From a virus: a stretch of 45,988 nucleotides of DNA. Under the pieces are notes generated by a model that saw only the letters and a program-made list of their open reading frames with translations, did not search any database and was not told where the DNA came from. Positions 2,253 to 31,249 of this stretch are shown here, piece by piece (within the stretch, counting starts at the first letter, position 1; each line of letters opens with the position of its first letter). The DNA lies in the IMG/VR virus record IMGVR_UViG_3300045988_087605, positions 1 to 45,988 of that record. One strand, given 5' to 3'. The position numbers and the translations under genes are program-made.

Positions 2253-2648
2253 ATGAAGTATTTTACATTAAAAGAGCTAACACGCTCAGCAACGGCAGAG
2301 GCAAAAGGTATTGATAACACGCCTACGCCGGAAGTTGAAAAGAACTTAAAGTTATTGGTAGATAATGTACTTGATAAATTACGTGAGATTTACGGCAAGC
2401 CGATCACGGTTAATTCGGGTTATCGGTGTCCGGAGTTAAACAAAGCCGTCGGAGGATCTAAAACATCCGATCACGTTAAAGGTTTTGCGGCTGATATTAC
2501 CGGAGGCAGCAAGGAAGAGAACGAACGCCTTTTCAATATCATTAAGCATAATTTCCATTTCAAACAATTAATAAACGAGAGAGATTTTTCATGGGTGCAT
2601 GTCTCCTACGATCCCTCTAATCTCAAAAACCAAATACTAAAACTATGA
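2253..2648 (+). CDS. endolysin, peptidase M15 family (zinc D-Ala-D-Ala carboxypeptidase / L-Ala-D-Glu peptidase-like)
   Basis: 'FTLKELTRSATAEAKGIDNTP', 'VNSGYRCPELNKAVGGSKTSDHVKGFAADI' and 'WVHVS' fit the H-x6-D...H zinc site and N-terminal signature of phage M15 peptidases. Confidence 0.85.
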   Translation: MKYFTLKELTRSATAEAKGIDNTPTPEVEKNLKLLVDNVLDKLREIYGKPITVNSGYRCPELNKAVGGSKTSDHVKGFAADITGGSKEENERLFNIIKHNFHFKQLINERDFSWVHVSYDPSNLKNQILKL

Positions 2649-3250
2649 AACGACAATTATTTGCGTTTTTAGCGACTTTTGTGCTTTGCCTTGGCATTGT
2701 GTCGCTATTACTGATAAACGCTGATTTACGTAAGAAAAAGGCTATTGCAGAAAGAAATGTTAGCGTCCTCACAACTCAGAACGTTGCGTACCGGACGAAA
2801 AACGGTCAAAGTGCCATGAAAGTAGAGGAATTGAATCTGACTTTAAATCAGTACCGGAACACCATACAAGGGAAGGATAACACTATAAGAGAGCTAAAGC
2901 AGTCTATTAAGGACTTGAAAAGTCACACAAGCGTTCAAACATCAACTGAGACGCATTTTAGAACGCCAGTACGGGATAGTATTGTTATTCGTGATAGTTT
3001 GGTTATCGACACAATGAAATGCGTAAATATGCGCTCTAAATGGCTTGATTTATCGGGCTGCATAGATAGCAACGGCACGTTTGCCGGAACAACCGTTACC
3101 CGTGATAGCTTGGAAATACTAAATATAGAGCATAGAAAGAGGTTTTTGTGGTTTAGACTAAAGAAGGTGAAGTATAGGGAGTTTATAGTAACGAGCAAAA
3201 ACCCCTACGCTGAGATAACAGGTTTTAACGTAACTACGATAATAAAGTGA
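2645..3250 (+). CDS. membrane-anchored lysis accessory protein (spanin-like)
   Basis: ATGA overlap with the endolysin. N-terminal TM anchor 'LFAFLATFVLCLGIVSLLLI' followed by a coiled-coil-like segment. Call rests on position in the lysis cassette. Confidence 0.4.
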   Translation: MKRQLFAFLATFVLCLGIVSLLLINADLRKKKAIAERNVSVLTTQNVAYRTKNGQSAMKVEELNLTLNQYRNTIQGKDNTIRELKQSIKDLKSHTSVQTSTETHFRTPVRDSIVIRDSLVIDTMKCVNMRSKWLDLSGCIDSNGTFAGTTVTRDSLEILNIEHRKRFLWFRLKKVKYREFIVTSKNPYAEITGFNVTTIIK

Positions 3251-3259
3251 TAATTCCAT

Positions 3260-3341
3260 GTTAAAACTGTTAATGCACGTTAAAGTATTTGCCACTTATA
3301 AATATATCCGTATATTTGCAGCGTAGAAGTTATTACTAACG
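3260..3341 (+). promoter_or_regulatory. early-type promoter/leader cassette, orphan copy (no ATG ORF behind it)
   Basis: GTTAAAAC 3260-3267, GTTAAT 3269-3274, GTTAAA 3279-3284. -33 TTTG 3288-3291; -7 TAtaTTTG 3311-3318 (19-nt spacer). Leader ATTACTAAC 3332-3340. Confidence 0.5.
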
Positions 3342-3495
3342 TCTTTAACAGCGGTTATTGATTTTCATAGAATTATCTTTGTGGAAGATTTGTATCACAT
3401 TTTATCTTAAACTGTCGGTATGCGAATATAGACAGTTTTAATTAGAACATTTTCACTAACTATATATATTGGGTTTTGTCATAATTACATTTTTC

Positions 3496-3527
3496 CCCCT
3501 CCGCTTGTGAAAGTAGAGGGGTTTTTT
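3496..3527 (+). terminator. rho-independent terminator closing the orphan transcription unit
   Basis: cccctc (3496-3501) / gagggg (3516-3521) stem followed by T6 (3522-3527). Confidence 0.5.
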
Positions 3528-3554
3528 ATTACCTTATCCGAACACACCTCAAAT

Positions 3555-3644
3555 GTTAAATAAGTGTTAAATATTAAACTTGCGCTTTGATATTTAAAAT
3601 ATCTCCTTAACTTTGCAAGGTCAAAAGGAAACGAATTACTAACA
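3555..3644 (+). promoter_or_regulatory. early-type promoter/leader cassette
   Basis: GTTAAA 3555-3560 and 3566-3571. -33 TTTG 3586-3589; -7 TAacTTTG 3608-3615. Leader ATTACTAACA 3635-3644; ATG at 3660. Confidence 0.6.
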
Positions 3645-3659
3645 ATAAAACTTAGAATT

Positions 3660-3905
3660 ATGGAAGAAAAGGAATTTATTTATTGCTTGACCGGAGAGAT
3701 TAACGTATTAGGCACTGTCAAGGCTAAGACAATAAAAAGTGCTATGAAACTTGTGGCGGCTATTCAGAGAACGAGAATATTGAATGATCCGGAAAGAAAA
3801 ACAATCTTTTGGAGTGTTTCACGTGCTGATCGTCCGTTTAAGTTAGGTAATATTGTGTATACAATATGCTATCCCGATGGGTCTATTCGTTCACATGTAT
3901 GCTAA
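3660..3905 (+). CDS. hypothetical early protein (81 aa), paralogue of 6120..6371
   Basis: First gene behind a cassette. 'VKAKTIKSAMKLVAAIQR' aligns with 'VEAKTIRGALTQIKKKQR' of 6120..6371. Confidence 0.65.
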   Translation: MEEKEFIYCLTGEINVLGTVKAKTIKSAMKLVAAIQRTRILNDPERKTIFWSVSRADRPFKLGNIVYTICYPDGSIRSHVC

Positions 3906-5974: not shown

Positions 5975-6004
5975 GGTAGCCCAATTGGGCTACCTTTTTG
6001 TTTT
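5975..6004 (+). terminator. rho-independent terminator
   Basis: ggtagccc-aatt-gggctacc followed by T5. Confidence 0.75.
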
Positions 6005-7576: not shown

Positions 7577-7688
7577 AGTTTCTATATATCACATACCGAA
7601 ACTATCGTTGCTCTATGAAACAAATCTAACAATATGTAGTAACAAGTATGAAAGTGATACAAAGGTAGGCTTTTGATACTATCCAATG

Positions 7689-7794
7689 GTTAAAACGAGT
7701 CTTTTTATATTTCATTAACAATAAAATTAAAGAATTCCTTTGCATATTTAAAGTTTATCCTTAACTTTGCGACATCAAAAAATAAGTAGTAACA
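7689..7794 (+). promoter_or_regulatory. early-type promoter/leader cassette
   Basis: GTTAAAAC 7689-7696. -33 TTTG 7739-7742; -7 TAacTTTG 7762-7769. Leader AGTAGTAACA 7785-7794; ATG at 7810. Confidence 0.55.
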
Positions 7795-7809: not shown

Positions 7810-8205
7810 ATGCAGATTAAAAAAGATCGAAATTACAAATTGCTTGTGCAGGTTTGCAAGAATAAAGGTATTCCATTCTCCTACGAAAAACTTGTTTTGT
7901 TTTTGAATAAGTACATTTATGAACATGAAGAAGATTCAGTATTTGGATATACAATATCTGATATTGATTTTTCAATCGCTAAACATATATCGGTTGATAT
8001 TTGCGGAATGCTTACATTAAGCAATATTATTTGCCAATTAACTTGCATCGGTGCGGGAGATTGCCCGAATTGCGGAGGTTTACTCAGATTGATAGAATCT
8101 TACCCCAAATTTAGCAAACAGTATTGCGATCGTGATTGTGAGCCGGAGAGAGAAGAAGAAAATGTATACGAATGTTTAACATGTGGAAAGGAGGTTATTT
8201 TATGA
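7810..8205 (+). CDS. hypothetical protein with C-terminal zinc ribbon (131 aa)
   Basis: 'CPNCGG' ... 'CLTCG' pair. Confidence 0.55.
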   Translation: MQIKKDRNYKLLVQVCKNKGIPFSYEKLVLFLNKYIYEHEEDSVFGYTISDIDFSIAKHISVDICGMLTLSNIICQLTCIGAGDCPNCGGLLRLIESYPKFSKQYCDRDCEPEREEENVYECLTCGKEVIL

Positions 8206-8453
8206 ATATTGAAAACACAATGATCCGAATCAATGATGCGATTATAAGCGCACGTATTAACGGCAAAAAGATTACGAAAAAGGATATTGCAGCGTTGTTG
8301 TGGAAGGATTCAAAGCAAAGAACGCAGGCGGTAAACATGTCTGCCTTGTGTAACCACAAAACCCAAACGATAAAAATAGAGTGGGTGAAAGAGATATGCG
8401 AGGCTACCGGAGTCGATGCGAATTTCCTATTTAATATTAACCCTAAAAAATAA
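8202..8453 (+). CDS. putative HTH DNA-binding protein (83 aa)
   Basis: ATG 8202 overlaps the upstream stop (ATGA). 'ITKKDIAALLWKDSKQRTQAVNMSA' looks HTH-like. The track start at 8172 lies inside the previous gene. Confidence 0.45.
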   Translation: MNIENTMIRINDAIISARINGKKITKKDIAALLWKDSKQRTQAVNMSALCNHKTQTIKIEWVKEICEATGVDANFLFNINPKK

Positions 8454-8458
8454 AAGTT

Positions 8459-18779: not shown

Positions 18780-18869
18780 GTTAAATACATGTTAAAACTT
18801 AAACTTTAGATTGCAATATTAAATCTTATCCTTATATTTGCAGTGTCAAAAGGAAACAAATTACTAACA
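18780..18869 (+). promoter_or_regulatory. early-type promoter/leader cassette
   Basis: GTTAAA 18780-18785, GTTAAAAC 18791-18798. ATTG 18810-18813; -7 TAtaTTTG 18833-18840. Leader ATTACTAACA 18860-18869; ATG at 18886. Confidence 0.6.
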
Positions 18870-30669: not shown

Positions 30670-31228
30670 AGCTATAATTAGACCAAATGCGGCACTTTTC
30701 GATAAAACGATAGCCGATGTACAGGTAAGCCTAACAAAATCGCTTAAATGGCTTAATTTCGCTTTTGGGAACGTGGTTAAATTGGTAGAGAGAAACGAGA
30801 GGGGGAAATTTGTTACCCCATCAGTGTATTTTAAGGGAAATGATTATTTGCGCTTAGAGCCTGACGATAAGCGGGGTAACGTTTGCTTTTTCTACATGCA
30901 CGACTCACAAGATTATGAAGGGGGAGACTCTTTGTCTGGCTTTGGCGATCTGAGGGGGACGGTTAGCATTATCTTTTGGTTCGATACCCGTAAAATCCCG
31001 GGTGCGGAATACTACAACGTGGAGTTTGTAAAGTCCGAAATACTAAGAGCATTAACGCATGAACTTTACCTGCCATCGGGTGATATACAGGTGAGGAAGA
31101 TATTTCATGACGCCAATAATGTATACAAGGAGTTTTCTATTCAAAAGACGGATAATCAATACTACGTTTATCCCTATGCTTGTTTGCGGTTTGAGTGTGA
31201 TATTCATTGCGAAGAAGGGTGTTATTAA
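30659..31228 (+). CDS. virion morphogenesis protein, function unknown (189 aa)
   Basis: Overlaps the upstream gene and is followed by a terminator. Confidence 0.6.
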   Translation: MNDRAIIRPNAALFDKTIADVQVSLTKSLKWLNFAFGNVVKLVERNERGKFVTPSVYFKGNDYLRLEPDDKRGNVCFFYMHDSQDYEGGDSLSGFGDLRGTVSIIFWFDTRKIPGAEYYNVEFVKSEILRALTHELYLPSGDIQVRKIFHDANNVYKEFSIQKTDNQYYVYPYACLRFECDIHCEEGCY

Positions 31229-31249
31229 AGGGGGAGTTTCCCCCTTTTT
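31227..31249 (+). terminator. rho-independent terminator
   Basis: aaaggggg-agttt-cccccttt stem plus T-run. Confidence 0.7.

Follow-up and report, generated by a model that had tools for sequence, protein, structure and literature searches.

Where the lysis genes of a Bacteroides fragilis phage give way to its first early genes, there is a stretch of about 400 nt that carries a promoter and, further on, a terminator, with no recognizable gene between them, and this raises the question of what such a unit produces. The window, i.e. the whole stretch of DNA that was analysed, is a complete virus record of 45,988 bases from a siphophage of the B124-14/B40-8 group, and all of its mapped genes lie on the + strand. 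Phages of this group are standard markers of human faecal pollution; research on them also concerns phage therapy and the way in which they affect surface variation in B. fragilis. The 1.6 kb around the gap matched 24 Bacteroides phage records, 17 of them at 90-97% identity (including B124-14, B40-8, Barc2635, vB_BfrS_23, VA7, UZM3 and the BF...P series), and in 23 of the 24 GenBank records no feature is annotated in the gap; the unit described here is annotated in none of the genomes inspected. In the literature on these phages we found no description of a non-coding unit; in Hawkins 2008 (PMC2535602) one putative promoter is indicated, 5′ of ORF12.

Two genes lie upstream of the gap, and on its 3′ side follow small genes to which no function was assigned and a gene for a DUF1351 protein. 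With lysis genes upstream and the first early genes downstream, the gap represents the late (lysis)/early junction. The elements of the junction are as follows.

2253-2648, + strand: gene of the M15 endolysin, 5′ of the gap
2645-3250, + strand: gene of the DUF6549 protein, 5′ of the gap; from its sequence the protein looks membrane-anchored and coiled-coil
3251-3659: the gap, between the DUF6549 gene and the 81-aa first early gene
3260-3264, 3269-3273 and 3279-3283, + strand: three GTTAA boxes upstream of promoter P1; like boxes precede the other cassette promoters
3288..3318, + strand: promoter P1, Bacteroides type, with -33 TTTG at 3288-3291, a 19-nt spacer and the -7 box TATATTTG at 3311-3318
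3323..3369, + strand: conserved 5′ part of the predicted transcript, with the leader element ATTACTAAC at 3332-3340 and a small hairpin (UAAC-AGCG-GUUA) at 3346-3357
3358..3441, + strand: TTG-initiated ORF of 27 codons, not a conserved gene
3368..3377, + strand: remnant of the cassette start context, TAGAATTAT and then C, with ATC as codon 3375-3377 of the window
3370..3412, + strand: hypervariable segment with two haplotypes, many substitutions and indels (π 0.185)
3409..3439, + strand: T1, a two-tier hairpin with an 8-bp outer stem, a 4-bp inner stem, a tetraloop and U4
3440..3495, + strand: conserved core of 56 nt between T1 and T2, predicted to be unpaired
3496..3527, + strand: T2, a strong intrinsic terminator with an 11-position stem (3496-3521), a GUGA loop and U6 (3522-3527), which closes the lysis operon
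3555..3659, + strand: cassette P2 with its boxes, -33 at 3586, -7 box at 3608-3615 and leader at 3635-3643; it drives the 81-aa first early gene at 3660

An earlier note on this DNA had described the boxes, the -33 and -7 elements, the leader and the terminator, all of which were found where it had placed them, and had proposed three explanations: a small RNA of about 200 nt, a TTG-initiated membrane micropeptide, or a decayed first gene. Its observation was partly confirmed. Among the three, the small RNA appears to fit the evidence best. We consider it probable (about 0.58) that the late/early junction contains a transcription unit devoted to a non-coding RNA, in other words a small-RNA gene of the phage; this reading rests on a maintained promoter, covarying terminators, the lack of a conserved ORF and a constrained unpaired core.

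To follow the unit among relatives, the gap was collected from 16 GenBank, 40 IMG/VR and 30 metagenome loci. The 82 loci yielded 64 distinct versions of the gap, which fell into clade A (46 versions) and clade B (18 versions). The comparison of ORFs was made on 38 distinct clade-A sequences, the window included, and 15 clade-B sequences, and the π values of the promoter were calculated from 37 clade-A sequences. The gap was present in every relative found, at a length of 405-411 nt in clade A and 441-465 nt in clade B, in which the upstream protein is about 68% identical to that of the window. None of about 80 related loci (GenBank phages, IMG/VR and metagenome contigs) had a gene inside the gap. 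BLAST aligned the two clades only from TTAATTAG onward, the 5′ half of the RNA not being alignable in this way; direct alignment added one short 5′ stretch shared by both clades, 3323-3369, whose counterpart in clade B lies about 58 nt further from its promoter. The promoter-terminator architecture is common to both clades, and the element occurs in one copy per genome. Among viral contigs the pattern of the core was found almost only in this phage group, and in 185,579 prokaryote species genomes it had no match, on which ground an origin from the host or a prophage was rejected. The unit is a well-supported candidate for a phage small-RNA gene; all members of the group that were examined have it, and it is confined to the group. 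One relative (IMGVR_UViG_3300045988_170652) has the complete element and differs in the region after P2; in this genome 671 nt separate locus position 2384 from the next ORF of at least 55 codons.

The consensus established in studies of B. fragilis promoters for the Bacteroides housekeeping sigma factor is TTTG at -33 and TAnnTTTG at -7. P1 conforms to it in both motifs and in their spacing of about 19 nt, and its start site would lie at about 3321-3326, near 3323. The pattern TTTG-N17-23-TAnnTTTG occurs 12 times in the window against 2.8 expected, a number reached by none of 100 shuffles. Paired boxes (GTTAA-N4-7-GTTAA) occur six times against 1.4 expected, and all six pairs are on the + strand immediately upstream of cassette promoters. 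In the 37 clade-A sequences π was 0.000 in the -33 TTTG and 0.009 at the specified positions of the -7 box, with 0.091 in the spacer; likewise it was 0.007 in the GTTAA boxes and 0.091 between them. The motifs of P1 are intact in 45 of the 46 clade-A and in all 18 clade-B versions (63/64 overall); in clade B the layout is unchanged, the -33 element reading ATTG or GTTG and the -7 box TACATTTG (18/18). The motifs are nearly invariant while the spacers vary freely, a footprint which shows that P1 and its boxes have been kept as functional promoter elements. A 22-codon ATG ORF (3258-3326, MLKLLMHVKVFATYKYIRIFAA) starts 8 nt past the DUF6549 stop codon and spans the boxes and P1. It is open in 31 of 38 clade-A sequences, its ATG being mutated in several, and the frame probably stays open as a side effect of the conservation of the promoter.

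P1 belongs to a family that includes five gene-driving cassettes, with -7 boxes at 3608, 6068, 7762, 18833 and 31305. It shares with these the GTTAA boxes, the -33 and -7 motifs, the leader element (T/G)TA(C/G)TAAC and the start context TAGAATTAT, but it is the only copy that has neither a terminator before it nor a gene behind it, and its start context stands about 18 nt further from the leader element, the extra nucleotides containing the small hairpin. In four of the five gene-driving cassettes a G+C hairpin with a T-run stands upstream of the boxes; none was evident at 7762. Since such a hairpin precedes most gene-driving cassettes, terminator and promoter can be regarded as one module repeated through the genome. 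Besides T2, the hairpins are at 5975-5994, 18800-18822 and 31227-31249; two copies abut the boxes directly, and the distance between hairpin and box is about 20-30 nt at 5975 and at T2/P2.

At the 3′ end of the unit, T2 has the form of an intrinsic terminator (stem-loop and U-run), with a folding energy of -15.6 kcal/mol in the window and -18.5 kcal/mol in clade B. T1 is weaker (-11.3 kcal/mol), and its U-run, U4 in the window, has at least five U in nearly all relatives. Compared with shuffled sequences, the folding z-scores of T1 and T2 were -4.2 and -3.9, respectively. T1 corresponds to what the earlier note had described as an 8-bp hairpin (3409-3416/3431-3438) covering the end of the TTG ORF; the coordinates were right, but the hairpin is a conserved terminator-like element and not an incidental one. 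It aligns column by column with a clade-B hairpin (CCUACU..GGUAGG, then U5), and the two-tier shape is the same in both clades. The covariation analysis that the note had suggested supported both structures. In T1 four pairs changed on both sides, and 89.5% of the cells were paired versus 30-54% when the arms were slid (19 distinct versions); in T2 two pairs changed on both sides, and 94% of the cells were paired versus 39-57% when slid. With T1 as a conserved terminator-like element ahead of T2, the unit ends in two terminators in tandem. In clade B, T1 (CCCUACUGGUUUGUGAAAAUAGGUAGG, L013:1406-1442) and T2 (CCCCGUUGCUUGUGAAAGUAGCGGGG) look by eye like duplicates of each other, a likeness which would mean that the tandem terminators may come from a duplication; the profile match between them was weak and not significant (E = 0.47).

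Between the two hairpins lies the core, in which both clades have the motifs TTAATTAG, ATTGGRTTTT, GTCAT and CATTTTT in common. No stable structure was predicted for it (-3.7 kcal/mol, z = 0.03). Its π is 0.016, mostly due to singletons. Third codon positions have a π of 0.046 and 0.081 in the adjacent ends of the neighbouring genes and of 0.12-0.17 further away, which makes the core 3-5 times less diverse than the nearest roughly neutral sites. The 3′ part of T1 together with the core (3413-3495) gave 0.0195, and T2 (3496-3533) 0.012. Low diversity extends over the neighbouring 300 nt as well and takes in the first part of the 81-aa gene, whose third positions have 0.046; some of the conservation may therefore be due to recombination or a sweep and not to selection on each base. 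The very conserved block of 450 nt is interrupted by two small islands of high diversity, the hypervariable segment, whose two haplotypes have sharp bounds, and 3545-3574 (π about 0.10); this pattern suggests frequent recombination at the module junction.

The main rival to the small-RNA reading, in our judgement an unlikely one, is that the region is an insulator with a spare promoter: T1 and T2 would serve only to stop read-through from the lysis genes into the early genes, P1 and the boxes would be kept for a reason at the DNA level (a factor binding the GTTAA boxes) or for some added early read-through, and the RNA would have no function. Several of the observations above agree with this, namely that terminator plus promoter is the standard junction at most other cassettes, that there is no terminator between the lysis genes and P1, and that diversity is low over the whole region; moreover, no target of the RNA was found among the phage mRNAs (see below). 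A terminator, however, needs only a stem and a U-run, so that an unpaired core of 56 nt with such low diversity is left unexplained, and so is the presence of a consensus promoter upstream of the terminators in 63 of 64 versions. P2, a complete cassette promoter, follows just past T2, at a distance of 60-90 nt; with a complete cassette 60 nt past T2, P1 is redundant for early expression.

If the region is instead a small-RNA gene, P1, as a maintained paralogue of the boxed cassette promoters of the phage, would be recognized by the host RNA polymerase and transcription would start near 3323. The RNA would consist, in this order, of the cassette-derived leader, a fast-evolving middle part, T1, the unpaired core and T2; transcripts ending at T1 would be about 120 nt long, and those ending at T2 about 205 nt. 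The unit has its own promoter, its own terminator and no conserved reading frame, as does an independent gene of a trans-acting small RNA. Since transcription of the lysis operon would meet no terminator ahead of P1, its mRNA should likewise end in this sequence. From the sequence we infer that the RNA accumulates, that its ends lie at these positions and that it acts in trans, in which case the unpaired core would be the acting part and a host mRNA or protein the partner.

How the unit may have arisen is indicated by its start context. The sequence TAGAATTAT(G) recurs at 3368-3376, and a further copy of TAGAATTAT, at 3653-3661, extends into the ATG (3660-3662) with which the 81-aa gene starts. 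By this repeat the codon homologous to the cassette ATG is 3375-3377, and not the TTG at 3358, which the earlier note had taken to stand in the place of the cassette ATG, 16 nt after the leader element (the distance is in fact 17 nt). The remnant of the start context suggests that the unit began as a duplicated cassette, i.e. that promoter, leader and start were duplicated and the coding part was probably lost. The idea of a decayed first gene therefore holds as far as the origin is concerned, P1 being a paralogue of the five gene-driving cassettes with its start context kept, but it fails in its expectation of an intact gene in related phages and an unconserved remnant here: no relative has such a gene, and the region is conserved. 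Beyond the 9-nt start context the body of the RNA showed no homology to the genes behind the other cassettes. Nor was there a conserved ORF in the gap, the longest ORFs differing between haplotypes and between clades.

That the region is a neutral remnant of a decaying duplicate gene, or a site acting at the DNA level (a replication origin, a packaging site or a linker for homologous exchange), is improbable. The surviving start context at 3368-3377 would be expected of a remnant, a second decayed cassette was reported in the earlier note at 7603-7650, and mosaic haplotypes with sharp borders flank the conserved block. The footprint over promoter and boxes, the covariation of the hairpins and the strand-specific terminators nevertheless point to a function at the level of RNA or transcription, and the supposed intact gene exists in no relative. 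Searches revealed no tRNA, tmRNA, iterons or tandem repeats, and repeats of the core motif, considered as a DNA-binding site, were not enriched; a candidate iteron cluster sits elsewhere, inside an initiator-like gene.

The 5′ part of the predicted RNA is conserved, with a π of 0.035 (3325-3369) that falls to 0.0045 in the small hairpin. In 31 of the 46 clade-A versions the codon at 3375-3377 is an ATG that opens an ORF of 11 codons (MF[L/V]EDLYHILS and close variants), and the stop codon of this ORF (TAA, 3408-3410) runs into the beginning of the T1 stem (e.g. L002:2276-2311), a geometry that would let translation melt T1. This arrangement, together with the weakness of T1 (A-U-rich stem, U4-5), speaks for a cis-acting attenuator, in which P1 and P2 would be tandem early promoters, T1, core and T2 a regulated stop, and a phage or host factor would set the level of read-through from P1. 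We regard such an attenuator as quite improbable: the mini-ORF is missing in the window, has only three codons in the second haplotype (7 other clade-A versions) and is absent from clade B; T2 is strong, and by eye, a point not computed, no upstream segment was seen that could pair with its arms, the upstream RNA containing a single GGG; and P2 alone supplies early transcription. An antitermination leader of the lambda pR′-tR′ type was also considered, and was rejected as the downstream operon has its own complete promoter, P2.

As for the TTG ORF, the earlier note was correct that the only ATG between P1 and the terminator opens an ORF of three codons (at 3420-3422, encoding MRI), and that in the window TTG 3358-3360 opens an ORF of 27 codons (3358-3441) with a hydrophobic product. 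This length, however, is found only in the window; the ORF has 7-8 codons in 33 of the 38 distinct clade-A sequences. The other 37 clade-A sequences have A at 3383, and hence TAG at 3382-3384, which in the window reads TGG. Three changes in the window are private or rare, ATG to ATC at 3375-3377, TAG to TGG at 3382-3384 (A3383G, unique among the 38 clade-A sequences) and a T1 U-run shorter by one base (3436-3439), all relatives having one or more additional T at this place; together these changes account for its 27-codon ORF. A 27-aa hydrophobic membrane peptide started at TTG 3358 and working with the lysis proteins is thus highly improbable, even though the ORF is present in the window and adjoins the genes of the endolysin and the membrane-anchored DUF6549 protein, for in most relatives it ends after 7-8 codons at the TAG, in clade B the TTG is replaced by TTA, the frame is crossed by indels of 1-4 nt (the second haplotype has a 4-nt deletion) and the TTG is not at the cassette start position.

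With the small RNA as the preferred reading, its mode of action can be stated only tentatively. The RNA may act in trans, with P1 as its source early in infection and the end of the lysis mRNA as its source late; its core might reprogramme an mRNA of the host or capture one of the host's RNA-binding proteins, and the hypervariable middle part might provide lineage-specific specificity. We found no report of a regulatory RNA from any Bacteroides phage in the literature, and the RNA would then be the first one described. Among the phage's own mRNAs no target emerged. When the core was compared with 68 phage translation-start regions (RNAduplex), the best energy equalled the expectation from shuffles (p about 0.23), and exact complementarity of at least 10 nt to phage mRNAs was at chance level in count and length, both in the window and in Barc2635. 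The two best sites, at 8356 and 10361 and complementary to UUGGGUUUUGU, are both within coding sequence and showed no co-variation in clade B.

Comparison of the whole window with Rfam 15 gave no match at the gathering threshold or at a relaxed E-value, the best sub-threshold match scoring 24.1 bits against a cut-off of 59. An RNA anti-CRISPR mimic was likewise considered. Three CRISPR repeats of B. fragilis are listed in PMC9367070; compared with both strands of the gap, they matched no better than they did random pieces of the window, and this candidate was discarded.

Among known systems, the lambda 6S RNA (pR′ to tR′) and StxS of Shiga-toxin phages are short promoter-proximal transcripts that end at an intrinsic terminator. 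The predicted RNA resembles them as a short non-coding RNA at the boundary of gene blocks, with a constitutive host-type promoter and a strong intrinsic terminator about 200 nt further on. In the lambda and Shiga-toxin phages, however, the operon behind the terminator lacks its own promoter and relies on antitermination by Q, whereas here P2 follows the terminator; furthermore, no antiterminator or qut-like site was identified, and the unit lies at the late-to-early junction and not ahead of the late genes.

DapZ and MicL of enterobacteria are small RNAs with a promoter of their own whose sequence coincides with an mRNA 3′ end. The present unit is similar in its overlap with the 3′ end and terminator of the upstream operon, in its internal promoter and in the unpaired conserved stretch before the terminator. 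The promoters of DapZ and MicL are inside the upstream coding sequence, whereas P1 is just past the stop codon. Moreover, DapZ and MicL work with Hfq; the host here is Bacteroides, in which to our knowledge no Hfq has been recognized.

Bacteroides itself has intergenic small RNAs, such as GibS of B. thetaiotaomicron and the Rfam families BTnc and Bacteroides-1. Like GibS, the phage unit has a TTTG/TAnnTTTG promoter and ends in an intrinsic terminator, its length falls in the range of 100-200 nt, and its conserved unpaired region would be the likely seed. It differs in having no match to them in sequence or structure (BTnc060, 17.5 bits against a cut-off of 228.9; Bacteroides-1, 16.6 against 43), and in being phage-borne and absent from the prokaryote genomes searched.

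If the RNA is real, it offers a compact way into the manipulation by a virulent gut phage of a host not known to have Hfq, and the unit a natural, portable promoter-terminator module for Bacteroides engineering. If the region is only an insulator, it documents how late and early transcription are kept separate in a genome that is read in one direction.

An observation outside the junction concerns an 83-codon ATG ORF at 8203-8454, which is absent from the greedy gene map of the window and overlaps by 3 nt the end of the gene at 7810-8205; in Barc2635 a hypothetical protein is annotated at the matching position.
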